A DNA stretch of 32,000 bases, from positions 2,040,001-2,072,000 of the forward strand of contig NC_007614.1 of NCBI RefSeq assembly GCF_000196355.1, written 5' to 3'. This document shows, in pieces, positions 1 to 24,132 of this stretch. The stretch is from Nitrosospira multiformis ATCC 25196. GTDB lineage: Bacteria > Pseudomonadota > Gammaproteobacteria > Burkholderiales > Nitrosomonadaceae. The notes below the pieces were generated by a model. It was given only the letters and a program-made list of their open reading frames with translations, had not been told where the DNA came from and made no database searches. A program made the position numbers and the translations under genes. Each line of letters begins with the position of its first letter. Position 1 is the first letter of the stretch.

Positions 1-379
1 TCATATATACATCAAGGCTGAGGAGCTCGAAAGTAAAAATAATACGGCTTGCAGAGGTGGGGGTAACGGGCTCGAAAAGGTAATCGCACCGATACGGATT
101 AGAAACGCCCTCAAAGCAAACGTGCCGACCTAGCTGAAATACTGTAACCCTGAATGTAGACTCCGAGCGCCTCCCCTGATCGATACGAACTTGACGACAC
201 GTCGTTCCTATTCGCACCGGTCCATCCGTCAACGGAATCAACTCTACAACTTCCCGCGACCACTTGGGATAGTTCACGAGTAAATTAGGGCCAACAAAAT
301 CGAAAACTTCTGTGGCCGGCCGCTGGATCACGGCGTCAGCTTTACCTGCCACGGGGGTGTCCTTAAGCAAACCGAACAT
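1..379 (-). CDS. SRPBCC (START/polyketide-cyclase-like) family protein, 3' end cut by window edge
   Basis: My own minus-strand translation from ATG 379-377 (GGAG 9 nt upstream) gives MFGLLKDTPVAGKADAVIQRPATEVFDFVGPNLLVNYPKWSREVVELIPLTDGPVRIGTTCRQVRIDQGRRSESTFRVTVFQLGRHVCFEGVSNPYRCDYLFEPVTPTSASRIIFTFELLSLDVYM. The frame stays open to position 2 with no stop, which is why it is absent from the ORF track. The pattern (RPxxEVFDFV, NYPKW, F.VT.F, Y.FEP) resembles SRPBCC proteins. Confidence 0.55.
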   Translation of the reverse strand, partial: MFGLLKDTPVAGKADAVIQRPATEVFDFVGPNLLVNYPKWSREVVELIPLTDGPVRIGTTCRQVRIDQGRRSESTFRVTVFQLGRHVCFEGVSNPYRCDYLFEPVTPTSASRIIFTFELLSLDVYM

Positions 380-478
380 AAAACTGACTCCGCTGTGTAA
401 TATCGATCAACTCCATTTCCACCCCAGTGAGTAACTCAGGACTGGCCGAAGCTTCCCCATATGGTAATTTCGTCAGAA

Positions 479-1273
479 TTATGTAAGACAGGGGAGATAA
501 GCTTCTATCATTGCAGATGACCCGGCAATAATCCCCTTCGAATGGATCGTCCATTCCATGCCCTCGTAATCAACCACTTTTCCTCCCGACACCCTCACCA
601 TGCAGACACCTGCAACCATATCTGCCGCTTTGGTCGAAGGACGAAAAAACAGGTCGAGCCTTCCCGCTGCCACTTCGGCCAGCGATAAAACAGGAACTCC
701 CAATACTTTTACTGCGCGCGCCTGTTGCAATATACGCGAAAGCTGCCCAAGTGTTTCCGGGCGCGTATGCATTTCAGAGGAAAAATCGAGTCCCACAACC
801 GCGTTTGCCGGTTCGGGCGAACTCCTTACCCGGGTAACTTCTCCATTTATTTTTAGCTGATGTTCTTCCTGTGCGCTATATAAGGTGTCATGGATGGGAT
901 CGTAAATGACGCCGAGAACAGGTTTTCCGTTGCGTAGAAGCCCGATGGAGACGGCAAGAAGTGGCGGATATCCCGTCATGTTTTCAGTCCCATCCAACGG
1001 ATCGACGACCCACTGGTCGCCCTGCTCGATAATGATTCCCCCGCTCTCTTCTCCATAAAAATGGCACGGGTGGAGTTTTAGAAGCGTTTCTTTCAGGAAT
1101 TGTTCGGATTCTCTGTCCGCAATGGTTACCACCTGCCGCCGGGACTTGAATTCACACCCCACACCTCGAGTATAGTGCGCTCTGATAATGCTCCCGGCTG
1201 ACCTTGCCACTTGCTCTATATCTTCTATAGGAAAGTCGTGCTGGGCGAAGCTTTTAAGCTTGAGGTTTTCCAT
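479..1273 (-). CDS. Inositol monophosphatase (IMPase/FBPase-like) family sugar-phosphate phosphatase
   Basis: 264-aa ORF. It carries the IMPase metal-binding motifs GEESGG and WVVDPLDGTENM. Its start lies 6 nt after the stop of the upstream GT2 gene, making it the last gene of the 8286->479 operon. Confidence 0.85.
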   Translation of the reverse strand: MENLKLKSFAQHDFPIEDIEQVARSAGSIIRAHYTRGVGCEFKSRRQVVTIADRESEQFLKETLLKLHPCHFYGEESGGIIIEQGDQWVVDPLDGTENMTGYPPLLAVSIGLLRNGKPVLGVIYDPIHDTLYSAQEEHQLKINGEVTRVRSSPEPANAVVGLDFSSEMHTRPETLGQLSRILQQARAVKVLGVPVLSLAEVAAGRLDLFFRPSTKAADMVAGVCMVRVSGGKVVDYEGMEWTIHSKGIIAGSSAMIEAYLPCLT

Positions 1274-1279
1274 ACGCGC

Positions 1280-2086
1280 TCATAACACCAGCTCTTTCGG
1301 AATATCGAAATTTCTGTTGACTACAGTGGTTGGTGCTTCCTGATGGTAGGCCCCGGAGGGGATAAGACCACAGCCGCCGTAGCGCTTCATGACTCTCAAC
1401 TGTGCAAGAACGTCTTCACCCGCATGTTCTTGCGGCACCTCCCGCCAGAATTCGAACCCGCCGGTTTCCCGCAATTTTTCGGTGTCATACAGCACGCAGC
1501 CTCCCACCCAGGCGACCTTGTATTTCTTTTGCGTGTCGGGGGTCAGTTTCAGTTTTTCCTGCACATGCAGGATATTGGCTGCATTATGCAGGCTATAACG
1601 CTGCCAATTCGCATGCTGGGGAGTAACGATCTCGGGCTCGACGCGCCCGTGCCATAGCTCTATCGCCTGTTCCGAAGGGCGGCAATCGTCCCGATATGAC
1701 AACCCGATGACTGCCTGCCCGACAAATCCGATCTCTTCTTCCCGATGCGCCTGCAGCATGTTTCCCAGAACGAAAGATTCCAGCAGAATGTCATCGTCGA
1801 GGTAAAGACAGTATGACGAATCGATCGTATCCAGCAGGAATTGCCGTTGTTGGGCCAGGCCGCGACGCGGCAGATTGGTCAGCTGCTGAACCGCATGGCC
1901 TTTTTTTTCCAGCAGGCGGATTGCTGTCTGCACAGAGGCATCCCTATAGACTGGGAGATCGCTCTGGTCGGAGATAACGACAGCAAAATCCTGGTGTTGC
2001 TGGAAACAAAGCGCGGTAAGGGTCACCGCCAAGGCAGTAGGGCGATTGTAGGAAGGAATGGCTACGGTAACGCCTGCCCGCATCAT
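1280..2086 (-). CDS. Family 2 glycosyltransferase (GT-A fold)
   Basis: 268-aa ORF. The N-terminus VTVAIPSYNRPTALAVTL is typical of GT2, and a DxD-type motif is present (YLDDDILLE). Confidence 0.8.
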   Translation of the reverse strand: MMRAGVTVAIPSYNRPTALAVTLTALCFQQHQDFAVVISDQSDLPVYRDASVQTAIRLLEKKGHAVQQLTNLPRRGLAQQRQFLLDTIDSSYCLYLDDDILLESFVLGNMLQAHREEEIGFVGQAVIGLSYRDDCRPSEQAIELWHGRVEPEIVTPQHANWQRYSLHNAANILHVQEKLKLTPDTQKKYKVAWVGGCVLYDTEKLRETGGFEFWREVPQEHAGEDVLAQLRVMKRYGGCGLIPSGAYHQEAPTTVVNRNFDIPKELVL

Positions 2087-2220
2087 GTAGCCCTAGTTAT
2101 TGATCCGGCGAATGAACTGCGGAATGCAGTAGCAGCCCGGCTTCGTTGTCGTTTCCGCCCTGGATTGCAGACCAGAGCCGGAACGATGCAATATAAATAC
2201 AACCGGGGTTTGTGCTGGCT

Positions 2221-3447
2221 TCATACATCCTCGCCATATCGAATAGGCGGGCACATGCCATATTCATTATGCGGAGTGAAACAGGCAGCCAGTGCAGTGT
2301 CAGGAAGGCTATTGCAGGTGGGGACTGGATTCCGGAGGGGGCTTGGAATGAAGGATCCGTGTTTTCTCCGTGGTGAAACAAGCTCACCTACAGCCGCCAC
2401 TATTGCCTCCGGTGAAGCCCTGGGTGTGGAGGATCCGGGGAAGGACTGAAGCAGCTGGTTCTTTGTCCTCAGTTCCGGCAGCACCTCGAAGTAGAGCACT
2501 TTGCTTGGCACTTGCCATGGCGTGTGCTGGGGATTTGTCATCGCGTACAGTACCACCACGGGGGTGCCGACGGCGGTGGCAATATGGACAGGACCGGTAT
2601 TATTCGAGATCAAGACGGGTGCCGCTTCGACCAGGACAATCAGTTCTGCAATGGATAGCTCGCCTGCGACATTTATCGCGGCATCACTGAGCTGGCGAGC
2701 GATCTGGTCTACATAATCGCGCTCGCTGCCGCTGCCTGTGAGCAGGATCTTATAGCCTTGCCTGATGAGCGATTGGCAGGCCGTTATATAATCTCTGGCC
2801 GGATAAAGACGCTTTTCTTCACTGACGCCCGCATGCAGCACCAGCCAGCCCATACCTGCCCGGATGCCGGCTACATTTAATATCTCCCATACCCTGTCCG
2901 TTGCTTCTTTCCGCGTTTCCTCTGGAATTTTCAGCAGGAGCCGGGTATCGGAGGTTTTTGCGCCGGCCATCTCGACCAGGCGAAGCTGCCGTTCGACCTC
3001 GTGGACGACGTAGTCCAGCGGTTCCCTGTCCGGCACCCACTGATTGATAAGCTGGTAAGGATTCTCGCGGCAATAGCCCAGAACGGCTTTGATACCCGCC
3101 AGATAGCACAACATGCCAGCCGGCAACGGGTTCTGGCTATAGACTGTAAAGATTACTGCGGCATCAAGCTGAAGGGCTAGCAATTCGCCGGCAAGCGCCA
3201 GCAACCGTTGCGCTCCATTGGTTTCGGTCGTCTTTACCCAGGGAACATCGAACGGAATCGTTTCGTCCACTTCCGGAATGAAGGGAGCAATGCATGCTCC
3301 CGCGGTGGAAGTCAACAGAGTGATTTTTCTGCCCGGAACCGATTCCTTGAGCGCCCGCATCGCCGGCTGGCTCATCAGCACATCGCCCATGTTGTCCGGG
3401 CGAACGCATAATATGTTCCTGTAATTTTTCCAGGCTCCGGCAAACAT
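2221..3447 (-). CDS. Family 9 glycosyltransferase (ADP-heptose-dependent heptosyltransferase-like) with an atypical ~50-aa C-terminal tail
   Basis: 408-aa ORF. It shows the N-terminal GT9 signature ILCVRPDNMGDVLMSQPAMRALKE and the C-terminal nucleotide-sugar half (ISNNTGPVHIATAVGTPVVVLY). Family-like sequence ends near ...PEAIVAAVGELV. The remaining tail (to 2221) is low-complexity, so the true stop is uncertain. Confidence 0.8.
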   Translation of the reverse strand: MFAGAWKNYRNILCVRPDNMGDVLMSQPAMRALKESVPGRKITLLTSTAGACIAPFIPEVDETIPFDVPWVKTTETNGAQRLLALAGELLALQLDAAVIFTVYSQNPLPAGMLCYLAGIKAVLGYCRENPYQLINQWVPDREPLDYVVHEVERQLRLVEMAGAKTSDTRLLLKIPEETRKEATDRVWEILNVAGIRAGMGWLVLHAGVSEEKRLYPARDYITACQSLIRQGYKILLTGSGSERDYVDQIARQLSDAAINVAGELSIAELIVLVEAAPVLISNNTGPVHIATAVGTPVVVLYAMTNPQHTPWQVPSKVLYFEVLPELRTKNQLLQSFPGSSTPRASPEAIVAAVGELVSPRRKHGSFIPSPLRNPVPTCNSLPDTALAACFTPHNEYGMCPPIRYGEDV

Positions 3448-3461
3448 TTTGATTTTCCGGC

Positions 3462-4937
3462 CTAGGCAACCTGTTTGTCCATGCTTTTGATCCTGGATAT
3501 GATGTTTGTCGTGGATCGGTCCTGAACAAAAGGCATGATTTCCACTTTTCCGCCGTATGCCCGGACAACCGGCGCTTCGGGAAGCGTTTCGATCGTATAG
3601 TCACCGCCTTTTACATACAAACTTGGCTGAATGACTTCGAGAAGATTGACCGGCGTGTCTTCTTCGAATGACGTCATGAGTGTTACCGACTCCAATCCCG
3701 AGAGGATGCGGATACGTTCATACAGGTTGTTGATGGGGCGATTGCTCCCCTTCAGACGTTTTATACTCGCATCGGAATTGAGGCCGAGCACCAGAACGTC
3801 ACCCAGAGCCCGTGCTTGCTCGAGATAGCTGACATGGCCGCTATGAAGGAGGTCGAAGCACCCGTTGGTAAACACGATGCGCTTGCCTTCTTTTCTGAAC
3901 GCATCCAGACGATTATCCAGGGCTTGCCAGTCCGCGACATATTTACTGCTGCTTCCCAGGTAATGCCGCAGTTCGTTCTGAGTGCAGGTGGCGGTGTGGG
4001 ATTTTTGAAGTATCACCATCGCGGCAGACTTGGCAATCTCACCCGCCACCTCAATAGATGATCCGCTGGCGAGAGCCAGCGTGAGCGCGCCTGCATAGGT
4101 ATCCCCTGCTCCGGCTGCCCGGGTGTTCTCTACCGGTTTGGAGAAGGTGCGATAAGGCTCCTTGCCGTGCTGAAACAGCAATGCGCCTTCGACATCGATG
4201 GTAGCCGCAACATATTTCGTTCCGGTTTTTTTGAGCAGCTTTTGTCCGTAGAGCCTGATCTGCTCCGAACGCTGGCCCACAGGCGCCGGTTCCGTGATGG
4301 CAAGCAGCGTGACGAGTTCCTGATAGTTCGGCTTGGCCACGGTCGCCCCAACCCGGCTGTATTTATCGAGCGATTTTGCGTCGATTACCAGAGTGTTTTC
4401 CTTTTTTTTCTGCAAAGCACGCAGAGCATCGATCACTGGGTCCGTGAGAATGCCATAACCATAATCGGAAACAACGACAGCATCCATCTCATGAAACTTT
4501 TCGTTCAGGGTATCGATCATCTGCTGCTCGTGCTTGTTGCATACCCGCTCTGTCGTGCCGGCATCAAAACGCACCAGCAGTTGGGTACCTGCGGCGACAC
4601 GCTGTTTGGTAAGCGTTCGACGGGCCGGATCGCAGATAACCAGGGAAATGTCGAGGCCATGACTGACGAGCGATTCTTTCAGCAACTCGGCCTCGTGATC
4701 ACATCCGACAACCGAAAGATAGTGGACTGTGGCACCCAGTTGTGCCAGATTTACTGCCGTATTAGCCGCTCCTCCCGGCACTGCCTTGACATCCCTGATA
4801 TCCACGATGGGAACAGGCGCTTCCCTGCAGATACGGTTTGCCGCCCCGTCGAGATAAACATCGAGCATCGCATCGCCGATTACAAGTACATTCAAACCGC
4901 TAAAGCGATCGATAGTGGCAAGATAACTGCTGTTCAT
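3462..4937 (-). CDS. hldE: Bifunctional D-beta-D-heptose 7-phosphate kinase / D-beta-D-heptose 1-phosphate adenylyltransferase
   Basis: The N-terminal half is a ribokinase-like domain (VLVIGDAMLDVYL..., PGGAANTAVNLAQLG). The C-terminal half is a cytidylyltransferase domain with the HxGH motif (FTNGCFDLLHSGHVSYLEQAR). I moved the start to the internal ATG at 4937 (MNSSYLATIDRF...) because AGGAGG lies 4-9 nt upstream. The ORF-track start at 5069 adds 44 non-homologous residues. Confidence 0.9.
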   Translation of the reverse strand: MNSSYLATIDRFSGLNVLVIGDAMLDVYLDGAANRICREAPVPIVDIRDVKAVPGGAANTAVNLAQLGATVHYLSVVGCDHEAELLKESLVSHGLDISLVICDPARRTLTKQRVAAGTQLLVRFDAGTTERVCNKHEQQMIDTLNEKFHEMDAVVVSDYGYGILTDPVIDALRALQKKKENTLVIDAKSLDKYSRVGATVAKPNYQELVTLLAITEPAPVGQRSEQIRLYGQKLLKKTGTKYVAATIDVEGALLFQHGKEPYRTFSKPVENTRAAGAGDTYAGALTLALASGSSIEVAGEIAKSAAMVILQKSHTATCTQNELRHYLGSSSKYVADWQALDNRLDAFRKEGKRIVFTNGCFDLLHSGHVSYLEQARALGDVLVLGLNSDASIKRLKGSNRPINNLYERIRILSGLESVTLMTSFEEDTPVNLLEVIQPSLYVKGGDYTIETLPEAPVVRAYGGKVEIMPFVQDRSTTNIISRIKSMDKQVA

Positions 4938-5025
4938 GCTGCCTCCTTTTACCTGGAATATGTCGCCCTGCAAGCTATACGGGGTCAAAGCAAATTCCAG
5001 GGAGCAATCGGGAAAACTGCCAGTA

Positions 5026-5634
5026 TCAGCAGTGTGCAACCTCCGTGCGCACGGCACCGCAATTGGCACCCTGACAAATAATTTCCGCTGCTTCCATCCA
5101 ATCCGTTACCGAATACACAGGTTCTCGATCATTGCCCTTTACCCACTCCGTCTCGTTACCGTTATCCAGATGAATCGTGCGGCAACCCGCACGATTTCCC
5201 GCTTCCACGTCGTTCAGGATATCGCCGATCATCCAGGAGGCCTGCAGGTGCACGCCCTGATCTTTGGCAGCCTTTAAAATCATTCCCGGCATCGGCTTAC
5301 GGCATCGGCAACCATCGCCCGGCGCGTGCGGGCAGTAATAAAAAGCGTCGATGGAAACATCATATTGCGCGAGCAAGGACTGGATGCAGCGGTTAACAGG
5401 AAACAAATCCTTTTCCTCGAACAAGCCCCGGGCGATCCCGGATTGATTGGAAATGACGACCAATTTATAACCCGCATTTTTCATATTCCGGAGAGCTGGA
5501 CCCGCACCCACGGTCAACCGGATATAGCGCGGATCGACGTTGTAGGGCACGTCGTGAACAAGTGTGCCGTCCTTGTCGATAAACACGGCCTTTCCAGGTG
5601 CAGTTTCTTCAGTTTTCTTAGCCACTACGGCCAC
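5026..5634 (-). CDS. gmhB: D-glycero-D-manno-heptose 1,7-bisphosphate phosphatase (HAD superfamily)
   Basis: It carries the HAD motif I FIDKDGTL and the GmhB zinc-loop signature YYCPHAPGDGCRCRKPMPGM. There is no in-frame ATG near the domain start. Candidate GTG starts at 5634 or 5625 overlap the TAG stop (5625-5627) of the upstream SDR gene. The rest of the 335-aa ORF-track frame overlaps the SDR gene and is rejected. Confidence 0.85.
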   Translation of the reverse strand: MAVVAKKTEETAPGKAVFIDKDGTLVHDVPYNVDPRYIRLTVGAGPALRNMKNAGYKLVVISNQSGIARGLFEEKDLFPVNRCIQSLLAQYDVSIDAFYYCPHAPGDGCRCRKPMPGMILKAAKDQGVHLQASWMIGDILNDVEAGNRAGCRTIHLDNGNETEWVKGNDREPVYSVTDWMEAAEIICQGANCGAVRTEVAHC

Positions 5635-6356
5635 GATGTCTCCCGCATCGGGAGAACCATAACTTCGGGAATCACCGTTTCGTCGGGTTGTGTCAGGACA
5701 AAGTGCACGGTGTCCGCCACGTTTTTTGGATCCTGGAGGACGTTTGGATCGGTATCGGGGAACCTGTCCATGATGAAAGGCGTGCGCATGCCGCCTGCTA
5801 TCACCGCAGTGACCTTGATATTGTCCCGGCGTCCTTCCGCATGCAGGGCATGACTGAAACCGAGCAGGCCCCATTTGCTTGCGTGGTAGGCACTGGCCTC
5901 CGTCCAGACCCGCTTCGCGGCTGTCGAGGCAATGTTGACGATATGACCCCTGCCCTGACGCTTGAGAAGCGGATAGACAGTTTTCGACAACAGGAAGGGA
6001 CCGCATAAGTTGACGTCCACCACCCGGTCCCAATCGGTCACGCTTAAATCTTCAATCCCCAGGGTCATGTCAGTACCGGCGTTGTTGATCAGGATATCGA
6101 TGCGGCCATGCTCGGCCATGATGTCATCGACAGTCTGCCGGATACCCTCCGCGTTGCGTACATCCAGCACGAATGGATAAGCAGCGCCGCCCCCGTCGTT
6201 AATGGCCTGGGCCACGTTTTTCACCTTGTCTTCCTTGATATCGCAGGCGCAGACGACCGCTCCTGCCGCGCCGAGCGTGTTTGCTATCGCCTCGCCCAAC
6301 CCCTGGCCTGCGCCCGTGACAATAACGACTTTGTCAGTCACACTTTGTTGATTCAT
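5625..6356 (-). CDS. Classical short-chain dehydrogenase/reductase (FabG-like SDR)
   Basis: 243-aa ORF with the cofactor motif TGAGQGLG, NNAG, and the catalytic YHASK (YxxxK). Its start overlaps the end of the upstream GT4-SIS gene by 23 nt. Confidence 0.85.
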   Translation of the reverse strand: MNQQSVTDKVVIVTGAGQGLGEAIANTLGAAGAVVCACDIKEDKVKNVAQAINDGGGAAYPFVLDVRNAEGIRQTVDDIMAEHGRIDILINNAGTDMTLGIEDLSVTDWDRVVDVNLCGPFLLSKTVYPLLKRQGRGHIVNIASTAAKRVWTEASAYHASKWGLLGFSHALHAEGRRDNIKVTAVIAGGMRTPFIMDRFPDTDPNVLQDPKNVADTVHFVLTQPDETVIPEVMVLPMRETSWP

Positions 6357-8286
6357 GCTTGATTTTCCTCTTATTAACGTTTTTAGCCATTTCCTGGACC
6401 TGAAAGTGCTTTATTGACCACTCTTCCGTTATCTGAACGGTATTCAGGTCATCCACCACGATTTGCTGCTCGATCAGATGACTGAGCACGTGGAGAACAA
6501 GCAGTTGTACTTCCTGGATGCGTGAAGTTTCGTTTGACGGAACAATGATGTTGATATCAGTCAGTTCGCTGGCAGGACCACCCTCCTTGCCAAGCAGGCC
6601 AATGCAGAACATCTCGTGCCGGCGCGCCGTCCGGAGCGCCTTGACCAAGTTGACTGACTGCCCGCTCGAGCTGATGACAACCAGAACGTCCCCCGGCTGC
6701 CCATGCGCTTCGACCTGTCTGGCAAACACATCGTCAAATGTATAGTCATTCGACCAGGCGGTCACAAAGGCGGTATCGGCAGTGAGTGCCATTGCGGGCA
6801 AGCCGCGACGACCACTTGCCTCAAACCGCCCCATGAGTTCGGCCGCAAAGTGCTGCGCTTCGGCGGCACTCCCGCCATTGCCGCAAACCAATACCTTTCC
6901 GCCGCGCGCCAACGAGCGGTATACAGCCTGGGCCGAATCGAGGATGGCAAGGCGGATTTTCCGCCTGGACTTTTCAATAGTCTCTATTAATGACCCGAAG
7001 GAGTCGTCGATGTAGGACAAGGAATCTTCTTCTTCGTCCGCTCGCAGGGGGCTCTGGGTTGCAATCCGCTCGTACATGTTGGCCGTGAGATGCGTTGCCT
7101 TCATCCAGGTGTAATTCTGATTGACATGGCGGATGGCGTTTTCCTTGAAATACGTCATGAGCTTGTTGCTGCTCAAAAGCTCTATGATGCGGCGCCCGAG
7201 TGACGCGGGATCGTTGGGCGGCACGAGAAAGCCCGTCCTGCCATCCATGACGGTGGATTTAATGCCCCCAACATTTGACCCGATCACGGGCGTCCCGCAG
7301 GCCATTGCTTCAAGCGGGGTGATCCCGAACGGTTCATACCAGGGCGTAGTCGTGAATACGTCGCACGCGCTATAGTAATAATGCAGCATGTCGCGCGGGC
7401 GGCGTCCGACAAACGTCACAAGATCGCCCGCACCCTCTGCTTCAGCCAGTTTTTGCAGGCGACCGATTTCAGGCGTTGTTTTTGGATCGGGCTCATCCGA
7501 CTCCCCGCCCACTATCAGAAGACGTGCTTCGAAGTTATGCTCGCGCCGCATGTAGCCCAGCGCTTTTATGACGTTATCGACACCCTTTCGCCGCACCATG
7601 CGCCCCAGTTGCAGGATAATCTTTTCCTTGGGATCGAGTTTCAGCGCCATGCGCGCGAACAGCTTGTCGAGAGGATAGATCTCATCCGGTCTGAATCCGT
7701 TTGGAATAACCGTGATTTTTCCGGGATCAGCTTCATAAAGATTGATCAGATCATCGCGGTCCTGCGGGCACAAGGCGACAATCTGGTCCGCTTCTGTTAT
7801 CACCCTTTCTTCGATGGCAAAGCCCTCGTCCGGGAACCAGTCATTCCCTCCCTGGTGAAGCCTCCGCACTTTTGCGAGAGCGTGAAAGGTAACGATGAAA
7901 GGAATACCCAGTTTTCGCTTGATATCCGCCGCCACCAGCCCGGACATGAAGAAATGGGCGTGAACGAGCTTGTAGCGATTGTTTTCCGACTTGATAAACC
8001 GCAGGATGTCGCGCGTGAAGGCGGGCATATAAGGCAGCAGCTTTTCCTTGGGAATGAACGTGACGGGCCCGGCTTCCACATGGACGATGCGTATGCCATC
8101 CCGCCAGTTGAGGATTTTTGGAACACGGCGGTCATCCCAGCGGGTAAAGACATCAATTTCGTAGCCGAGGGCGGCAAGATGCCGGGCCAGCTCGGCCACC
8201 GCTATATTTTGTCCGCCGGTGTCCGTACCTCCTATTGCCGCGATGGGTGAAGCGTGTTCACTGATGAGGGCAATTCTCTTCTTCAT
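6334..8286 (-). CDS. Fusion protein: N-terminal GT4 glycosyltransferase (sucrose-phosphate-synthase-like) + C-terminal SIS-domain phosphoheptose isomerase (GmhA-like)
   Basis: This is a single uninterrupted 650-aa ORF. Residues ~1-410 have the SPS/GT4-like N-terminus ISEHASPIAAIGGTDTGGQNIAVAELARHL and the EX7E region YEPFGITPLEAMACGTPVIGS. Residues ~445-610 align by eye with E. coli GmhA (GGKVLVCGNGGSAAEAQHFAAELMGRF..., ISSSGQSVNLVKA..., RIQEVQLLVLHVL). A strong RBS GGAAGGAG precedes ATG 8286. Confidence 0.85.
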   Translation of the reverse strand: MKKRIALISEHASPIAAIGGTDTGGQNIAVAELARHLAALGYEIDVFTRWDDRRVPKILNWRDGIRIVHVEAGPVTFIPKEKLLPYMPAFTRDILRFIKSENNRYKLVHAHFFMSGLVAADIKRKLGIPFIVTFHALAKVRRLHQGGNDWFPDEGFAIEERVITEADQIVALCPQDRDDLINLYEADPGKITVIPNGFRPDEIYPLDKLFARMALKLDPKEKIILQLGRMVRRKGVDNVIKALGYMRREHNFEARLLIVGGESDEPDPKTTPEIGRLQKLAEAEGAGDLVTFVGRRPRDMLHYYYSACDVFTTTPWYEPFGITPLEAMACGTPVIGSNVGGIKSTVMDGRTGFLVPPNDPASLGRRIIELLSSNKLMTYFKENAIRHVNQNYTWMKATHLTANMYERIATQSPLRADEEEDSLSYIDDSFGSLIETIEKSRRKIRLAILDSAQAVYRSLARGGKVLVCGNGGSAAEAQHFAAELMGRFEASGRRGLPAMALTADTAFVTAWSNDYTFDDVFARQVEAHGQPGDVLVVISSSGQSVNLVKALRTARRHEMFCIGLLGKEGGPASELTDINIIVPSNETSRIQEVQLLVLHVLSHLIEQQIVVDDLNTVQITEEWSIKHFQVQEMAKNVNKRKIKHESTKCD

Positions 8287-8789
8287 ACTCCTTCCCTTTC
8301 ATTGAAGCCGGCCAAAGTAAGCCGCTCGGTACTGAAACAGAAGAATGCCCCCTCATTCACACGGGAACACTCCCTGTTACAACAGACCGACGTCTGCATG
8401 GCCAACCAGAGTATGTCGGATGTCGAAACGATCGAGGGTTACGAGATTTTCCATGGAGACACATACTGCATTCGAATCCAGTGTATCCCTTTGATTCCAG
8501 ATCAATCATCGAGTCGAATTAGAGCAGATGCCCGAATTTTAAGAAGGAAAACGCGTGCGCTCTGTTCGGTACCACACTCATGCTGAGCGGCGAAGCCTTC
8601 CGGAGGGGAGCTTGCTTAAGGCAGGCAAAAGGGCGGACAAAAGAGTACTGGATTGTCCTAGGGACGTTCCGGTTCGGGGATTCGCAATTGAAGAAGAAGC
8701 AGGAAGGTATTCTTATGACGCGGATACGAGGTTTCATCCGGCAATCTGGTTGATTCCCGGCTTTTTTCGCCCACTCGGCGCGGATTCAA

Positions 8790-11700
8790 TCAATCGAAAC
8801 TGAGCGAATAAAGCACATCGATCGCATTATCCGTTCCCGCACGGGCAACTAACGTGATCTTGGGAGTTAGCGCATAAGTGAGCTTCGTCACACCCGCCGT
8901 CGCGGCGGCAAGCCCTTGTTCGTAGCTGATGTAAGCCTCCTTCGACAGGCGCTTGCCGATCGTGCCAATCTGGCCGGTCAAGGGATCGCTTCCTGCCTGC
9001 CGGATCGATAGCTCGTCTACTCCCAGCGCCCGGGTTATTTTATCGGTCACACCGCCGGATTGCCCTCCGAGAATGGAGCCGGCCGCGGCAAGCAATAAGG
9101 AGGCGTCCGCCTTGCCTCCCGGAGCTCGCCCCAGCGTAATCCACGAGAGTTTCTCCAGGTCGGACACGGCCGGCGTCGATACCAGCTGTATGACGGGATG
9201 ACGCACGCTGCCAGTCACTTCAACTCCTGCCACCACCGCCAACCCCTTGCGCACTGCACGCACGTTCAGGGCCGGATCATCGATCGGACCCTGAAAGCCC
9301 ACGATGCCTCGCTCCACCGTTAAATCCTGCCCATAGGCCTCGAACTTCGTATCCTGTGCCGTAATGGTGCCGACAGTACGAAGCTTCTGTCCGGGCTCGC
9401 CCCTCAAATGCAATTGTCCGGCCAGCCTGCCTTCCAGCCCGGATGCATGGATGTAGAACCGCTCACCCAGATCGAGAGTGGCTTTAACATCGATACGCAA
9501 TCCCCTGCGCTCGGATTGCGGTCCATCCGGTTCGTCCCGGCCGATGATAATCACGTCATCGGGTAAATGAGGACGACCCGCGGTAGGCTGCGCCAGCAGC
9601 CCTGCATTCGCCATGAGATTTCCCTTGAGGGTGAGCATATTGTGTTCCAGCATGGCATTACCGCTTCCCGAAGCAATAATCCAGCGATCAGGCCGTTGAG
9701 CCAACGGAACAAGATTGGCGGTAATCTCGACACTGCCGCGTTCTCCGGTAAAATCCAGGACTCCCGACGCCCGCAAGGTACCCGGTCCTTTTGCGAGTTC
9801 CAGGTGCCGCAACAGAGGATCCTGCGGAGGAGATTGATGCGGCGCCGAGAAATCGAGGATGTCCATGTGAAGGGACTTCTCGTTAAAATGCGCCGCGAGC
9901 TTTCCCTGTTCAAGCCGCACGCCATGCTCCAGCGAGGCAACCGCAAGGTTATCTCCTTGTATCTTTCCTTCCAGACGCGGCTTGCCAAACGTCCCGACCA
10001 CATCTGCCTGCAATGCAATTGCACCGCCCGTTTTGATGCTGTTGTCAATGGCGGGACCCGTCCAGGAAATATCCTGCATATTGACAAAGATGTGCCCGGA
10101 GAGGGCAGCCTCCTGCAAAATCGTCCAGTGCATCCCCGACTCGACTGCTTTTGCCAACGGCATGGCGACAAGAGCGTTCGCCTCGCCCAATCGCTTGCCT
10201 CTTGCCGTGAGTTCTGCGGTCAGTTGGCCGTTTGTAGCCCGAGCAGACAATTTGAGGACTTGCAGACCCAGCGGTAGCGGCGGCTCATCCGGCAATATCC
10301 AGTCGCCACCCTCGCGTTCGATGTCAATAAAACCTTTCAGTTGGCTACCGGCTGAAATATCCCATTCTCCGTGTAGCCGGAGAGCTTCATGACCCGCTCC
10401 CCGATCGGCTTCATACCGCCTGCGCCCGTCCGCACCTTCGGTTTCGTTTGCCCCTGCAGTCTTTGCGGTCTTCGCTGCCGCCACAGACTCCACAGCCGCC
10501 TCCGACTTTTTCCCTCCAGCCCCGGGACGCAGTCCAATCCCCGAAAAATGCCCCTTTGTGCTCCACCTTTCAGGACTCCAATCGATTTCACGAATCTGCA
10601 CTGTGCCTCCCGCGATGCCGATGTTCGATAAACCGAGTGATGCGTGGTTGAAGCCAACTTGTACGGGAGAGGTATTTTTGAGGCTAAATGGAACTCGCCC
10701 CGACCCGGACAACTCCATCAGTTCCCCTGCCCATTCGGCATCCCGCCTCTGCCCCCCCGTTTTGGCAAGACCCCCTCTGCCTCGGAGGGACAGCCTCTGA
10801 TCATCGACCAGTTGGGCAGAGACCTGGATCTCGTGTTGTGAAGTACTGCCTCCCATTTCCACACTGAGTTGTTGCAGACGTGGATTTGCCTGGAGCCGGT
10901 AGTCCGCAGCCAGGATCTTTAACGTGATCGCATCGCCGTGCAGCGTGCCATCGGCAGTGAAATTATCCAGATAATGCTCATTCGGGAGCTTGATGCCCTT
11001 TCCCGTGACGTAAAAGCTTATATCCGGCAATTCAAGCGGCTTCTCGATAAAACTGGCGGAACTGCTCCCCATTATTGCCTTCGCCATCAGTGAGCCCCCA
11101 AGCCCGTACCCAATTTGCGCCAGCGCAGGAGCATTCAATTCAAGCTGCAGTTGATCGCCTGGACGCCCGTAACCGCCACGCGCCAGAAGCCGGTTCGTGC
11201 CGAAGTTTAATTCGATCCCCCCTTTAGCCCGGCTGAGCCCTGCAAACTCGATGCGGCCATTGCCTGATACCGGTTGTTCCGCGACGTGACTGTTAGCGAT
11301 TGCAAACTGAGCCGTACCTGCCGGTTCTGAAACTTTTCGGGAGGATTCGGGCGTTCCGGTTGAACCCAGCTCACCTGTCAGTTTGAGTGTCGCGTTGAGA
11401 TCGGTTCGAGGCCCCTGCAAAAACACAGAAATATCAAAGCGCCGCAAGCTGCCCCCCAGGTCAAACTCCCGCTGCCCGTTCAACTCCATCCTGCCCTGAC
11501 CGGTAAACAGGGATTGCCCATGGCTGAGGCGCACTTTTTCCAGTGTCAGCACATCGTCCGCCAGTGTCATATGAACATCCGCACTCAGCTTCCGATCATG
11601 AAGCGCCAATATTCCCTGCTGGCTCTTCTCATCCCCACTGAGTCTCAGGGATCCACTGACATTCGTGGGCCGCATCCGCGTATCCAGCCCGGCCAGGTTA

Positions 11701-19645: not shown

Positions 19646-20464
19646 TTAGTGAAGACCGGAAGCACGAGGCATCGCTTCCTCCATTGTTCCCTGCAAGGGT
19701 TCGCGCTTCCTCAGCATGCGTAAAACCCAGTAGATGGCACAAGCGGCAAGCAGATGCTTTACGCTGTGTCCACTGATTGCGTGTCCCAGAGCATAAATCG
19801 GCCGGTCTGTGAATTCCGCAACCTTGGCAAGGGCATAAAGCCCCAGCGCAGTGTAGATGTCTCGTCCGCGGGTATAGCGCGAGCGGAAAAAAACACCCAG
19901 GAGAACGATGACCAGCAACGAATAGAACTGCACGACTACATAAAAGTTCAGATTGCCCACCCCCCGCTGTTCGCTCCAGTACCAGTTCAGTACGGTACCT
20001 GCTCCGATCGCAATCAGGACAGGCAGAAGGCGTGTCCCTGCTTTTGGACCGATCCGGTCGTTGATCGTTGCTGCCAGCAGCGCCATGATGCCGATTGCAA
20101 TGGGTAACCGGTCCCATATCAGACGATCGTTGTCAGGAGCCAGATGGTAGTAAGCTGAACCGAAGCATACCAGGGCCACGTTCAGGAACAAAATCATGAA
20201 AGGCCAGCGTTCGGACGGGAGGGTAAAGGTCTTTGCCGCGCACGAACCTCGAGAGTTCAGCAAAAATACCAGCCCTGCGACTCCAACGAAGAGAAAAGCG
20301 AAATTGGAGATTACATTAAAACAGTTTGGAATGCCGAAACAGTCCCGGCTATCGGCGAAATGGTGGTATGACGAGGGCTGTGGAATGGGCGGAACAATTG
20401 TCGCAAGCAACAACATGGCGACTGAAAGTATAGCCAGTATCCATAATTTGAATTTATTGCTCAA
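19646..20464 (-). CDS. Polytopic membrane protein, alkaline-ceramidase-like (PF05875-like) family, function unknown
   Basis: 272-aa ORF with about 7 hydrophobic segments. The motifs YHHFADSRDCFGIPNCFNVISNFAF and GHAISGHSVKHLLAA resemble bacterial ceramidase-domain proteins as I remember them. The family assignment is unverified. Confidence 0.6.
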   Translation of the reverse strand: MSNKFKLWILAILSVAMLLLATIVPPIPQPSSYHHFADSRDCFGIPNCFNVISNFAFLFVGVAGLVFLLNSRGSCAAKTFTLPSERWPFMILFLNVALVCFGSAYYHLAPDNDRLIWDRLPIAIGIMALLAATINDRIGPKAGTRLLPVLIAIGAGTVLNWYWSEQRGVGNLNFYVVVQFYSLLVIVLLGVFFRSRYTRGRDIYTALGLYALAKVAEFTDRPIYALGHAISGHSVKHLLAACAIYWVLRMLRKREPLQGTMEEAMPRASGLH

Positions 20465-22798: not shown

Positions 22799-24121
22799 TC
22801 AGGGATTTGAGGGATCGACACCGGCATAGGGAATTCCAGCCAACCTCGATATTTCGGCTTTCCAGGTGCAAATATCATCCCGGCTAAATTCCCGCAGGGA
22901 ATGGTGGCCGCAGGCTCTTGTCATGATCTTCATCAGGTGTACACTGCCGTTGAAAAACAGCGCCAGGTCACGCGCCCTGGCGTCGACGTCGATCTTGTTG
23001 ACCAAGTGTTGGGCATGGGTTGCTATGCCGGCAGGACAATCGCCGGAGTAGCAGATGCGCGCACCGGTACAGCCAATTGCCTGCAGCGCACTATTGGCCA
23101 GCGCGATTCCGTCGGCTCCCAAGGCTAACGCCTTAATGAAATCGGAAGGAATGCGCAAACCGCCGGTAATAATCAGGGTCACGCTATTCTTTGCACCTTT
23201 CTCATGGCCTGCGACGTCGAGAAATTTTCTCGCCCGCGCCAATGCAGCGATCGTTGGCACTGAAATATGGTCCCGGAAAATCCCCGGCGCAGCACCGGTA
23301 CTGCCACCTCGTCCATCGAGAATGATGTAATCGGCCCCGGCATCGAGCGCGAAGCGCATGTCATCCTCGATGTGGTTTGCGCTTATCTTGAAACCAATCG
23401 GAATGCCGCCCATCTGGTCGCGGATCTGATCGGCAAAATCAGCAAAATCGCGGGGTGTGTGGAAATCGGCAAAGGTGGATGGGGAGATCGCATCCTTGCC
23501 GACTTCAATCTGGCGTGCCTTGGCAATCTCCTCCGTAACCTTGCCTCCCGGCAAATGCCCACCTGTACCGGTCTTGGCCGCCTGCCCGCCCTTGAAGTGA
23601 AACGCCTTGACTTTGCCTTTAAAATCCTTCGAAAACTGACTCAAGTCGCTGTTTTTCTTCAGGCCGTTGCGCGCGCTGCCCAATTCGAACATATAACTTT
23701 GATTCAGCTCGAGTTCATCCCCCAGAATGCCGCCCTCACCTGAACAGATCGCAGTGCCGGCCAGATCAGCCCCCTTTGACAATGCCTGCTTGGCCCTTTT
23801 CGACAGCGCGCCATAACTCATATCGCCAACCAGCAGCGGGATATCCAGAACCAGGGGTTTTTGGGCACGCGGACCGATCACCAGCTGAGTATCCACCGGG
23901 GCATCATCTATTAATGGTTTTTTATGGAGCTGCGCTGTCAGAATCTGGATATCGTCCCATTTGGGCAGCGTATCCTTCGGCACCCCCATGGATACCACCG
24001 GCCCGTGATGGATTTCATCGGGATAGTCGATAAGCTCACGTCCCAGTTCGATCATCTGCAAAATGTCGAACCGAGTGTTTTCGATGCTGGCCGCTATGCT
24101 CTTTTTCAATTCTTCGTTCAT
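22799..24121 (-). CDS. Stand-alone FMN-binding glutamate-synthase-domain (GltB domain 2-like) family protein
   Basis: 440-aa ORF. The TIM-barrel FMN-domain pattern is present (MSYGALS, GEGG, KISANHIEDD..., DYIILDGRGGSTGAAP, GGLRIPSDFIKALALGADGIALANSAL). No amidotransferase or GltD-like domain is attached. The start lies 11 nt after the stop of the upstream cytochrome-like gene. Confidence 0.85.
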   Translation of the reverse strand: MNEELKKSIAASIENTRFDILQMIELGRELIDYPDEIHHGPVVSMGVPKDTLPKWDDIQILTAQLHKKPLIDDAPVDTQLVIGPRAQKPLVLDIPLLVGDMSYGALSKRAKQALSKGADLAGTAICSGEGGILGDELELNQSYMFELGSARNGLKKNSDLSQFSKDFKGKVKAFHFKGGQAAKTGTGGHLPGGKVTEEIAKARQIEVGKDAISPSTFADFHTPRDFADFADQIRDQMGGIPIGFKISANHIEDDMRFALDAGADYIILDGRGGSTGAAPGIFRDHISVPTIAALARARKFLDVAGHEKGAKNSVTLIITGGLRIPSDFIKALALGADGIALANSALQAIGCTGARICYSGDCPAGIATHAQHLVNKIDVDARARDLALFFNGSVHLMKIMTRACGHHSLREFSRDDICTWKAEISRLAGIPYAGVDPSNP

Positions 24122-24132
24122 TATTGCATCCT

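Follow-up and report, generated by a model that had tools for sequence, protein, structure and literature searches.

A gene cassette shared by a dozen or more bacterial phyla joins ADP-heptose enzymes to a sucrose-phosphate-synthase-like glycosyltransferase in Nitrosospira multiformis

The window analysed here, a 32,000-nt stretch of Nitrosospira multiformis DNA, carries seven tightly spaced minus-strand genes between positions 479 and 8286, and every open reading frame proposed from the letters alone was present at its coordinates. In the order of transcription, they encode a GT4::GmhA fusion (8286-6334, 650 aa), an SDR (6356-5625, 243 aa), a HAD/GmhB-like protein (5634-5026, 202 aa by the public gene call), HldE (4937-3462, 491 aa), the GT9 protein GT9a (3447-2221, 408 aa), the GT2 protein GT2w (2086-1280, 268 aa), and an IMPase-family protein (1273-479, 264 aa). 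Direct reading of the sequence also bore out the junctions first described: GT4::GmhA shares 23 nt with the SDR gene, whose stop codon TAG (5627-5625) runs into an in-frame GTG at 5625, the HldE ATG at 4937 lies behind an 88-nt spacer and the SD sequence AAAGGAGG, and the spacers after HldE are 14, 134, and 6 nt, the last separating GT2w from the IMPase gene. The public gene call starts the HAD gene at the GTG at 5634 instead, giving a 10-nt overlap with the SDR gene. Such tight co-directional packing alone is ordinary operon architecture; the operon stands above chance expectation because it is conserved, with all seven genes in Nitrosovibrio Nv4 and the first five, in the same order, across phyla. 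The upstream intergenic region (8287..8789, minus strand), a presumed promoter region of 503 nt from the tamB stop to the operon start, yielded no Rfam match at E<=1 and no promoter-like site exceeding shuffle expectation.

Profile searches of all seven proteins against Pfam and NCBIfam upheld their family assignments. HldE (3462..4937, minus strand) is bifunctional, with a PfkB heptose-7-P kinase domain followed by a CTP_transf_like heptose-1-P adenylyltransferase domain; its best match is HldE (PRK11316, 392 bits, below the cut-off of 521), and domain II passes its own model (rfaE_dom_II, 203.6 bits, cut-off 181.5). Its C-terminal FVQDRSTT motif is not preceded by an Arg at the fifth position before it and thus lacks the STTR5 feature (PMC11461863). 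The GmhA domain of the fusion (6457..7014, minus strand, aa ~425-610), a sedoheptulose-7-P isomerase domain of the SIS fold, matches SIS_2 at 90 bits and the phosphoheptose isomerase models PRK13936 (199 bits) and TIGR00441 gmhA (186 bits), both below cut-off, with motif positions H479, E483, Q591, and H599 conserved (alignment A1). The GmhB-like HAD-IIIA phosphatase (5026..5634, minus strand) is proposed to act as heptose-1,7-bisphosphate 7-phosphatase and/or on the GT4 product. It scores 146.7 bits with PRK08942 GmhB (cut-off 178), exceeds the cut-offs of the HAD-IIIA and histidinol-ppase domain models, has E. coli GmhB 3l8e (93.6 bits) and the Bordetella bronchiseptica protein 3l8h (92.4 bits) as nearest solved structures, and keeps the CPH...CxCRKP loop. 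The complete ADP-heptose pathway read from the sequence thus stands at the family level only, since all proteins except HldE domain II fall below the NCBIfam equivalog cut-offs for the canonical enzymes. The SDR (5625..6356, minus strand) is a classical dehydrogenase (adh_short, 188 bits), for which NCBIfam and PDB searches gave no specific assignment, and is seen as an accessory tailoring enzyme in about 50 of 81 loci. Its catalytic S144, Y157, and K161 are invariant and intact in the window, and an Asp39 at the end of beta-2, kept in 35 of 37 cassette SDRs, leads us to predict a preference for NAD(H).

GT9a (2221..3447, minus strand) represents a distinct subfamily of the heptosyltransferase family GT9 and always lies just after HAD/HldE. 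It matches Glyco_transf_9 at 87.5 bits and heptsyl_trn_II at 109.5 bits (below the cut-off of 134.6); its nearest solved structure is WaaF 1psw (60 bits), and its identity to E. coli WaaF is 25%. Orthologues of GT9a occur in about 67 loci, and 51 of 57 have Asn where the D[ST]GxxH motif has Asp. GT2w (1280..2086, minus strand) is a soluble GT-A glycosyltransferase (Glycos_transf_2, 34.9 bits). Its AF2 model (pLDDT 89) is a GT-A fold of the generic kind, for which Foldseek ranked chondroitin polymerase, GlfT2, and TarP highest. Homologues at 58-63% identity occur in Deinococcota, Cyanobacteria, Bacteroidota, and Chloroflexota, and GT2w lies inside the cassette in 13 scanned loci and in Deinobacterium. 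The IMPase (479..1273, minus strand; Inositol_P, 154 bits; nearest solved SuhB/IMPase, ~100 bits) behaves differently: it had no tblastn match in any of 80 cross-phylum loci, its named orthologues at >=60% identity all belong to Nitrosospira, Nitrosovibrio, or Nitrosomonadales (the rest being metagenome sequences), and its relatives at 44-51% identity sit outside cassettes. It is a lineage-specific add-on of the Nitrosospira/Nitrosovibrio type, not a conserved phosphatase.

The Nitrosospira operon is one copy of a cassette found in a dozen or more bacterial phyla, not a private oddity. Cupriavidus, Burkholderia multivorans, and Chitinophaga are among its carriers. With the taxonomic labels of MAG contigs taken as given, carriers include Cyanobacteria, Chloroflexota, Dehalococcoidia, Actinomycetota, CPR, Deinococcota, Myxococcota, Bacteroidota, Planctomycetota, and Burkholderiales, often with the gene order kept. 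The order GT4(::GmhA)-SDR-HAD-HldE-GT9 is shared by a Saccharibacteria-labelled genome, Anaerolineales, Deinobacterium, and dozens of further loci, whose proteins are 45-69% identical to those of the window, and the Nitrosovibrio Nv4 copy is flanked by different genes. ORF clustering of 81 loci recovered GT4 in 81, GT9 in 76, HAD in 66, a small GT in 64, SDR in 50, a carbamoyltransferase in 44, a membrane GT2 in 41, and HldE in 36. The conserved core is therefore the SPS/MshA-like GT4, the GmhB-like HAD, GT9a, a second GT9, and the small GT. The last two of these, GT9b and the small GT, lie in Nitrosospira with a third GT9 (GT9c) downstream of the operon, about 3 kb past the window start; the unit is thus larger than the self-contained seven-gene module that the sequence-only reading had suggested. 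HldD, already noted as missing from the operon, was found neither in the window nor in any of about 90 loci. A literature search found no paper on the cassette, which agrees with the earlier statement that no characterised pathway has this gene set.

Could the operon simply supply ADP-heptose and transferases for LPS core, outer core, O-antigen, capsule, or EPS, with its relatives doing likewise for the surface glycoconjugate of each host? The host is a Gram-negative betaproteobacterium, the operon adjoins the outer-membrane biogenesis genes tamA/tamB, and each of the three GT9s has a WaaC/WaaF/WaaQ model as its best match; to our knowledge, characterised GT9 activities are LPS heptosyltransferases apart from an LPS N-acetylglucosaminyltransferase. 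Moreover, the cassettes that we call type B carry the membrane GT2 and a NodU-type carbamoyltransferase, some with an ABC-type protein, so that the product may be membrane-linked or exported there, and carbamoylated heptose occurs in Pseudomonas LPS core. However, Chloroflexota, Dehalococcoidia, Actinomycetota (Thermoleophilia), and CPR (Roizmanbacteria and Saccharibacteria) carry the cassette and lack LPS, with no lipid A/Kdo acceptors, and the tamB adjacency is not kept, the upstream neighbour in Nitrosovibrio Nv4 being RelA/SpoT. The loci have in common no waaA, waaL, wzx/wzy, ABC O-antigen exporter, or initiating transferase for polyprenyl phosphate. HldD is missing, and the proteins, again with the exception of HldE domain II, score below the equivalog cut-offs for LPS enzymes; even in the best matches, the cassette GT9s share just 21-35% identity with E. 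coli WaaC/WaaF. We consider this envelope role unlikely, and the view that the operon does not look like a standard LPS-core locus is sustained by the LPS-free carriers, the lack of HldD, and the divergent GT9s. Whether the cassette is instead horizontally spread, cytoplasmic machinery for a non-LPS heptose glycan is, in our judgment, evenly balanced.

A cytoplasmic location would also suit protein heptosylation, with the GT9s modifying a protein as AAH/TibC do autotransporters and the other transferases extending the glycan. E. coli uses ADP-heptose for protein glycosylation via aah (PMC11461863). The seven window proteins match no family of membrane proteins, flippases, or ligases, nor do the loci share one, which counts for the cytoplasmic glycan model too. 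In Nitrosospira, Nitrosovibrio, and the Saccharibacteria-labelled genome, the downstream cassette half is accompanied by a PEBP-family protein. Nevertheless, just one cross-phylum locus of those scanned has this PEBP protein, no candidate substrate protein is conserved beside the cassette across phyla, and the tight coupling of an SPS-like GT4 to a phosphatase would be left unexplained, making protein heptosylation highly improbable.

That GT4 domain (7057..8286, minus strand, aa 1-410) is a retaining GT-B enzyme of the SPS/MshA clade and our candidate for the primer synthase, with a phosphosugar as its acceptor. It matches Glyco_transf_4 and Glycos_transf_1 in Pfam, its top NCBIfam match is MshA (269.8 bits, below the cut-off of 462.5), and with 135.9 bits it is far below the SPS cut-off of 576. 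Its nearest solved structures, Thermosynechococcus SPS 6kih (225 bits), Corynebacterium glutamicum MshA 3c48 (192), and H. orenii SPS 2r60 (115), all use phosphorylated acceptors. Of the 81 family members, all that are alignable have Q26, K80, H135, R229, R233, E318, and E326. The family as a whole retains the catalytic His/Glu, the UDP-phosphate Arg/Lys, and the basic residues for the acceptor phosphate. In TeSPS, Arg105 and Arg178 bind the phosphate of sucrose-6-P (PMC7264703); their equivalents in the family are Lys80 (79/79) and Arg155 (76/79), and Gln26, corresponding to the fructose-binding Gln51, is kept in 79/79. The description of the domain as sucrose-phosphate-synthase-like thus proved apt. 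Nonetheless, Arg155 is replaced by Gly in the window copy and its nearest relatives (L021 and L003), which weakens the phosphosugar-acceptor argument for Nitrosospira itself.

The MshA likeness raises another possibility, namely that the acceptor is no heptose but inositol-1-P or another phosphorylated or acidic small molecule, as for MshA/BshA, released by a phosphatase (IMPase here, HAD elsewhere), heptose being a later decoration and the GmhA fusion reflecting co-expression only. Besides the top NCBIfam match and the rank of C. glutamicum MshA as second-best solved relative, this small-molecule glycoside or cofactor would account for the IMPase gene lying only 6 nt from GT2w, for a PIG-L (MshB/BshB-type) deacetylase in 7 loci, and for the membrane GT2 of type-B cassettes, which is closest to MftF, a cofactor glycosylator. 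Yet only Nitrosospira/Nitrosovibrio-type cassettes have the IMPase and only Burkholderiales loci yielded PIG-L, the acceptor-site motif is the SPS-type GGQN and not the GGMN of MshA, and the families conserved in >=4 loci include neither an inositol-phosphate synthase nor a cysteine ligase nor any other thiol-pathway family. The recurrent GT4-GmhA fusion (26 of 56 full-flank loci), together with one to a GmhB-like HAD, points to heptose phosphates. We regard such a product as doubtful, a shade more so than an envelope role.

The phosphatase that travels with GT4 is the HAD, which is beside it in 49 of the 56 full-flank loci, versus 26 for HldE; 24 of these loci have HAD without HldE and one has HldE without HAD. 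In four loci, the GmhA domain and HAD are kept and HldE is not nearby, with GmhA fused to GT4 in L009, L010, and L026. Two Rosetta-stone fusions were also found, a stand-alone GT4::GmhB-like HAD (P0288) and, within a cassette, smallGT::GT4 (P0254). The synthase-plus-phosphatase idea therefore stands, with the GmhB-like HAD and not the IMPase as the conserved partner. As a counterpoint, the HAD is by sequence a good GmhB. Being the sole GmhB-like phosphatase in the fetched loci of LPS-free hosts, it probably does at least the canonical job, which could be all that its tight linkage to GT4 reflects. Fusing GmhA or HAD to GT4 may likewise do no more than keep pathway members co-expressed, as is the case in HldE.

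Altogether, we propose as best model, to which we give neither more nor less than even credence, a cytoplasmic cassette assembling a heptose-containing glycoside rather than LPS inner-core machinery. The cassette would make ADP-D,D-heptose, the D,D form being expected from the cassette by itself since HldD accompanies it nowhere. We infer the donor and acceptor of every transferase. GT4 would move a hexose or N-acetylhexosamine from an NDP-sugar to a phosphosugar, most economically the heptose-7-P supplied by its fused GmhA domain. The HAD, a member of the heptose 7-phosphatase family, would then strip the phosphate, so that GT4 and HAD act like sucrose-P synthase and sucrose-P phosphatase, and in Nitrosospira and Nitrosovibrio the added IMPase probably assumes one of the two phosphatase jobs. 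GT9a would add heptose from ADP-heptose to the dephosphorylated primer, GT9b, the small GT, GT9c, and GT2w would attach further residues, and the NAD-type SDR may oxidise or reduce one position. We expect the product to be cytoplasmic and rich in heptose, an oligosaccharide or glycoside with roughly 5-7 residues. The sequence-only reading had also allowed a small glycoside; five or six glycosyltransferases make an oligosaccharide more likely than a simple disaccharide osmolyte.

The cassette shares with the LPS inner-core heptose system (GmhA, HldE, GmhB, HldD, and WaaC/WaaF/WaaQ) the same four ADP-heptose activities by family and transferases of the GT9 family, which keep the N-terminal xGD motif. 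It differs in having no HldD, in the Asn that GT9a carries for a conserved Asp, in the divergence of its GT9s to below equivalog cut-offs, in its presence in LPS-free hosts, and in its coupling to an SPS-like GT4 that the LPS system lacks. SPS/SPP and analogous pairs (MshA with its phosphatase) resemble it in that GT4 is closest to solved SPS and MshA with key residues kept and that the phosphatase gene adjoins it, fused in one relative as in SPS::SPP. In contrast, the cassette GT4 scores far below the SPS and MshA cut-offs and carries a fused heptose-phosphate isomerase, its phosphatase partner is of the HAD-IIIA GmhB-like and not the S6PP type, and the several transferases following GT4 suggest a product larger than a disaccharide. 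The mycobacterial methylglucose lipopolysaccharide is primed with glucosylglycerate by GpgS/GpgP and then extended by a GT4. This pathway would follow the same logic as the one proposed here, a phosphorylated primer being dephosphorylated and then elongated by soluble cytoplasmic GT-B enzymes, although its GT81 synthase, its glucose in place of heptose, and its primer differ, and the cassette has no conserved methyltransferases or acyltransferases. We know of no use of the cassette's gene set by the septacidin-type or AAH/TibC systems. Like the cassette, these make and consume ADP-heptose outside the LPS core, in septacidin-type natural products of Streptomyces and in protein heptosylation (PMC11461863), whereas they are narrowly distributed and the cassette, its gene order conserved, is found in a dozen or more phyla.

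The seven genes of the operon lie on the minus strand, each as an open reading frame at exactly the coordinates first proposed: a 650-aa GT4::GmhA fusion (8286-6334), a 243-aa SDR of classical type (6356-5625), a GmhB-like HAD (5634-5026), a 491-aa HldE (4937-3462), a 408-aa GT9 hereafter called GT9a (3447-2221), a 268-aa GT2 called GT2w (2086-1280), and a 264-aa IMPase (1273-479). The junctions, read directly, bore out the short spacing: the GT4 and SDR genes overlap by 23 nt, an in-frame GTG overlaps the SDR stop TAG (the public HAD gene call starts at a GTG 9 nt further upstream), HldE starts after an 88-nt spacer with AAAGGAGG-N5-ATG at its end, and the remaining spacers are 14, 134, and 6 nt. 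The 134-nt spacer between GT9a and GT2w depends on the GT9a C-terminal tail being real; this tail of ~45 aa (2221-2370) is absent from the 359- to 375-aa orthologues of other phyla, the Nitrosovibrio orthologue having 397 aa. A search for a riboswitch or other RNA leader returned no Rfam match at E<=1 across window positions 1-9500, and a promoter and terminator scan gave counts not above the shuffle means.

Pfam and NCBIfam upheld the family calls of all seven proteins. The GmhA domain matches SIS_2 (90 bits), has the GmhA models as its best family (186 to 199 bits versus equivalog cut-offs of 209 and 276), and is assigned to the SIS-fold isomerases, as E483, Q591, and H599 fall in the alignment on conserved GmhA motif positions; we take these residues to be the counterparts of E. 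coli GmhA Glu65, Gln172, and His180. HldE combines PfkB (121 bits) and CTP_transf_like (59 bits) in Pfam; PRK11316 spans its residues 8 to 485 with 392 bits versus a cut-off of 521, and its domain II gives the sole equivalog cut-off passed in NCBIfam (203.6 versus 181.5). For the HAD, the best family is GmhB (146.7 versus a cut-off of 178 and 122.6 versus 149.6), the HAD-IIIA domain cut-offs are passed, and the Zn loop CPH...CxCRKP is present. GT9a reaches 109.5 versus 134.6 for heptosyltransferase II and 76.3 versus 185.3 for heptosyltransferase I. These scores below the cut-offs of the canonical LPS enzymes indicate divergent, paralogue-type members and not, by NCBI criteria, the housekeeping set. 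An arginine in the STTR5 motif of HldE confers CDP/UDP-heptose synthesis (PMC11461863); the window HldE ends in FVQDRSTT without this arginine, and its predicted product is thus ADP-heptose. The identical GT4::GmhA fusion protein occurs in the Nitrosospira multiformis-type assembly GCA_900108135.1 and in one Logan assembly, and relatives at 98% identity carry the name Nitrosospira multiformis.

The unit is larger than the seven-gene module first proposed and reaches outside the window. About 3 kb past the window start in the same genome (L087 11770-15535), on the minus strand and after a variable insert, lie a PEBP-family gene and three glycosyltransferase genes encoding a 335-aa GT9 (GT9b), a 325-aa small GT, and a divergent 380-aa GT9 (GT9c). 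The small GT is ~57 to 69% identical to its counterparts in other phyla, a conservation at least equal to that of GT4 and with the highest top identities. Nitrosovibrio Nv4 has all seven genes together with the downstream trio (L095 16725-20532). Its insert encodes a 1050-aa protein, the same 134-aa hypothetical protein, and DsrE, versus SRPBCC, PAS, lipocalin, and the hypothetical gene in Nitrosospira, and its upstream neighbour is RelA/SpoT versus TamB in the window; hence the tamAB genes beside the operon in the window are incidental neighbours. Elsewhere in the window, positions 22799-25863 encode a 576-aa protein that bears three CxxCH haem-binding motifs and what looks like a signal sequence, followed directly by a GltB-like FMN protein of 440 aa (Glu_synthase domain). 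For the larger protein, Cytochrome_CBB3 (24 bits, below cut-off) is nearly the only Pfam match; from these features the two would form an uncharacterised cytochrome-flavoprotein pair. Positions 19646-20464 encode a 272-aa membrane protein matching the ceramidase family PF05875 (36 bits), which to our knowledge is unusual in betaproteobacteria.

Conservation of the neighbourhood was confirmed well beyond this lineage. Full-length homologues of the fusion at 55 to 69% identity were found under the record names Methylococcales, Saccharibacteria, Chloroflexota, Dehalococcoidia, Anaerolineales, Limnocylindrales, and Leptolyngbyaceae, and the order GT4::GmhA-SDR-HAD-HldE-GT9 recurs three times in distant hosts, on a 1.29-Mb contig labelled Saccharibacteria, whose cassette (L003 10001-20307) is inserted between rpoC and rpsL/rpsG, on an Anaerolineales 2.4-Mb contig, and in Deinobacterium chartae. 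The Deinobacterium operon, GT9b-smallGT-GT4::GmhA-SDR-HAD-HldE-GT9a-GT2w-GT9c behind a PucR-like regulator, looks like the canonical arrangement of what we call type A. Outside the Proteobacteria, the nearest relatives of the Nitrosospira proteins are those of L003 (GT4 69%, small GT 69%, PEBP 66%), which suggests a recent horizontal transfer. A scan of a species-representative genome collection with GT4 yielded at least 600 stretches, of which 593 were confirmed, and the 80 loci retained extend the range to Roizmanbacteria, Actinomycetota, Thermoleophilia, Nannocystis, many Bacteroidota, Planctomycetota, Gemmatimonadota, Methylomirabilales, the anammox bacterium Jettenia, and many Burkholderiales.

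The content of 81 loci was established by tblastn with the window proteins and by all-against-all ORF clustering. The clustering found GT4 in all 81, GT9 in 76 (usually at least two per locus), HAD in 66, SDR in 50, a NodU-type carbamoyltransferase in 44, a membrane GT2 in 41, HldE in 36, the window-type GT2 in 13, the 330-aa small GT in 64, and IMPase in none; a separate count has the small GT in 69 loci and GT9b in 73. Type A, with the GmhA fusion and HldE, is self-sufficient; its carriers are Cyanobacteria, Chloroflexota, CPR, Actinomycetota, Deinococcota, Nitrosospira, and Methylococcales. In type B, carried by Bacteroidota, Planctomycetota, and Burkholderiales, the GmhA fusion is mostly lacking, as is HldE in most copies, and the carbamoyltransferase and the membrane GT2 are added. 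Five cyanobacterial loci (L007 17177-19393 and four others) encode a 738-aa tandem protein of two GT9 domains downstream of the cassette, bringing the GT9 domains encoded there to up to four.

Heptose nucleotides are chiefly known as precursors of LPS and as innate-immune agonists. The operon was compared with an LPS inner-core locus. Absence of an HldD-type gene, already claimed by the sequence-only reading, was confirmed by tblastn with E. coli HldD, which had no match in the window; the sole SDR of the operon is not an extended SDR. Across ~90 loci its only matches were a single 34-residue fragment and, in nine Burkholderiales-type loci, UXS-like extended SDRs of 25 to 27% identity. Even in their best matches, the cassette GT9s are no more than 21 to 35% identical to E. 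coli WaaC/WaaF; the three Nitrosospira GT9s remain below equivalog cut-offs, and the window GT9 is 25% identical to E. coli WaaF with no WaaC match. Moreover, the Asp of the D[ST]GxxH motif, required for WaaC activity, is Asn in 51 of 57 GT9a orthologues (L003-L086), whereas WaaC, WaaF, and GT9c have Asp; at this position GT9b has Asp in 47/63 and Cys in 15/63. By its sub-cut-off scores, 25% identity, and the Asn in the motif, GT9a is not classed as a WaaC/WaaF orthologue. No Kdo transferase, ligase, flippase, or polymerase was found among the conserved cassette neighbours. Nor does the cassette appear restricted to lipid A-Kdo makers: it is present on contigs labelled Chloroflexota, Dehalococcoidia, Actinomycetota, Thermoleophilia, Roizmanbacteria, and Saccharibacteria, groups not known to make lipid A or to have lpx genes. 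Altogether, the hosts, the lack of HldD in the loci, and the divergent GT9s give comparative support to the proposal that this is not a standard LPS-core locus.

The nearest solved relatives of the GT4 domain are Thermosynechococcus sucrose-phosphate synthase (TeSPS, 6kih, 225 bits), Corynebacterium glutamicum MshA (192 bits), and H. orenii SPS (115 bits), all of which glycosylate phosphorylated acceptors. In TeSPS, the phosphate of sucrose-6-P is bound by Arg105 and Arg178 and that of UDP by Arg249 and Arg253, the catalytic residues are His158 and Glu331, and Gln51 contacts the fructose moiety (PMC7264703). When transferred through a HMMER alignment, Arg105, Arg178, Arg249, Arg253, His158, Glu331, and Gln51 fall on K80, G155, R229, R233, H135, E318, and Q26 of the window protein. 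Among 81 family members, H135, E318, R229, and R233 are invariant, K80 and Q26 are each found in 79/79, and position 155 is Arg in 76/79. Gly155 (7822-7824) occurs in only 3 of the 79: the window, Nitrosospira Nsp11 (L021), and the Saccharibacteria-labelled L003; this clade also has the PEBP gene in common and, in its Nitrosospira branch, the extra IMPase, a coincidence with the loss of Arg155 that may or may not be meaningful. An SPS orthologue (135.9 versus a cut-off of 576) and MshA itself (269.8 versus the TIGR03449 cut-off of 462.5, with a GGQN motif versus the GGMN of MshA) were both rejected, and no MshC- or MshD-like family was found among the conserved neighbours. A known defence system was also rejected, PADLOC defence models giving no match for the seven proteins at E<=1e-5; a match to the Pfam model 'GT4-conflict' (46.8 bits) is far weaker than those of the general GT4 models there and reads as general GT4 similarity.

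The sequence-only reading had also suggested, as an example, a synthase-plus-phosphatase route with the IMPase as phosphatase. The logic of this route gained comparative support, and it is the partner that changes: the IMPase has no homologue in 80 cross-phylum loci and was rejected as conserved partner, which is instead the GmhB-like HAD. Named IMPase orthologues at 60% identity or more are all from Nitrosospira, Nitrosovibrio, or Nitrosomonadales, the rest being metagenome sequences; the next relatives, non-orthologous and 44 to 51% identical, lie in unrelated contexts. By this distribution the IMPase is a lineage-specific addition. Among 56 full-flank loci, the HAD, usually placed directly after GT4 or SDR, is present with GT4 in 49, against 26 for HldE; 24 times the HAD is there and HldE is not, against a single reverse case. 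Four loci have a GmhA domain and the HAD with no HldE nearby; in three of them, all Bacteroidota, GmhA is fused to GT4. The HAD is GmhB-like by every measure, and its linkage pattern suggests that it may have an additional or alternative substrate besides heptose-1,7-bisphosphate.

An exhaustive fusion search of 1.8 billion representative proteins added a 663-aa GT4::GmhB-like-HAD fusion, P0288 (L091 618-2609, JGI metagenome 3300034803), whose identity is 38% to GT4 and, over 187 aa, 34% to the window HAD; the Zn loop is retained. It lies beside GGDEF and histidine-kinase genes, with no GT9 nearby, and could represent the cassette system reduced to synthase and phosphatase. P0254 is a smallGT::GT4 fusion within a cassette; further out (35% identity), P0361 is a true SPS::SPP fusion with a phosphatase of S6PP type. 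Hence, in different lineages, GT4 is physically joined to a maker of heptose-7-P and to a member of the heptose 7-phosphatase family. The simplest reading, which we infer from these fusions, is that GmhA, then GT4, then HAD would act in sequence on a heptose-7-P acceptor; mere co-expression of the members of one pathway would also produce such fusions.

Among the accessory enzymes, the SDR retains its catalytic residues S144, Y157, and K161, and 35 of 37 cassette SDRs have the Asp at the end of beta-2 that is the classical NAD(H) signature; PDB and NCBIfam returned only generic classical SDRs as to its specificity. GT2w is 58 to 63% identical across phyla, and its confident predicted model matches only generic GT-A enzymes (chondroitin polymerase, GlfT2, TarP/TarS), too generic for its fold to serve as a functional clue.

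Type-B copies also lie on large secondary replicons: tblastn against plasmid records found GT4 at 48 to 51% identity on those of Burkholderia multivorans, B. cenocepacia, Burkholderia sp. RPE67 (from the bean bug Riptortus pedestris), Caballeronia, Paraburkholderia, Cupriavidus, and Ralstonia. The B. multivorans locus (L096, NZ_CP020399.1 304308-329528) adds a UDP-glucuronate decarboxylase, a PIG-L-type deacetylase, and sigma-54 regulators, the decarboxylase and deacetylase being confined to Burkholderiales-type loci, and is set among BON, CBS, PRC-barrel, DUF892, and DUF2795 genes, domain families that we take to be typical of stress-response loci. A BON gene also flanks the Anaerolineales cassette (L005 5581-5790) and a DUF2795 gene the Nitrosovibrio one (L095 20596-20790), a weak hint of a stress- or dormancy-related role.

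We propose a model in which the cassette would make a non-LPS, cytoplasmic heptose oligosaccharide, a reading that we consider about evenly poised between right and wrong. In a bolder and less likely version, the SPS-like GT4 would glycosylate heptose-7-phosphate supplied by its own fused GmhA domain, the GmhB-type phosphatase would find a second use on the glycoside 7-phosphate, and D,D-heptosyltransferases would lengthen the heptose counterpart of sucrose or trehalose formed in this way. Within the model, heptose-7-P as the GT4 acceptor is a tentative and rather doubtful step. Of the small glycoside or glycan first envisaged, the non-LPS character is retained and the simple small product gives way to what is probably an oligosaccharide. 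That such products form an undescribed class of cytoplasmic heptose glycosides, and that bacteria without LPS use ADP-heptose mainly for them, is possible, though we would not expect it. If true, ADP-heptose use in CPR, Chloroflexota, Actinomycetota, Deinococcota, and many cyanobacteria would be accounted for.

The purpose of NDP-heptoses beyond classical Gram-negatives was left open in a 2024 commentary on Tang et al. (PMC11461863). The cassette is a concrete and testable candidate answer, with a conserved gene set and dedicated heptosyltransferases, and GT4 relatives occur in at least ~590 stretches of the species-representative collection. Some carriers can be cultured, and for some genetic tools exist, among them B. 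multivorans and B. cenocepacia (replicons), Cupriavidus, Paraburkholderia, Chitinophaga, Dyadobacter, Deinobacterium, and Chlorogloeopsis PCC 6912. Their study would define new GT9 and GT4 specificities, with a possible second substrate class for GmhB-type phosphatases, and would reveal a new glycan in ammonia oxidisers and cystic-fibrosis Burkholderia; an LPS or EPS variant would be of modest interest.

Full-text literature searches returned nothing on this gene set, two apparent leads, Antarctic cold-tolerance clones (PMC9717686) and the Burkholderia lxa locus (PMC6127331), proving unrelated, and NCBIfam, PADLOC, and Rfam hold no dedicated model for the cassette. All enzyme families are familiar; what is new is their combination, its breadth, and the likely product, so that the system is not categorically new and belongs with nucleotide-sugar pathways coupled to glycosyltransferases, here with a synthase/phosphatase primer step. 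An LPS inner-core locus of the L,D-heptose type differs from the cassette in having the HldD epimerase, found at no cassette locus, and WaaC/WaaF orthologues, among which the window GT9 is not classed. The SPS/SPP system shares with it a phosphatase adjoining or fused to the synthase, although the phosphatase type differs, HAD-IIIA in the cassette versus S6PP in SPS/SPP.
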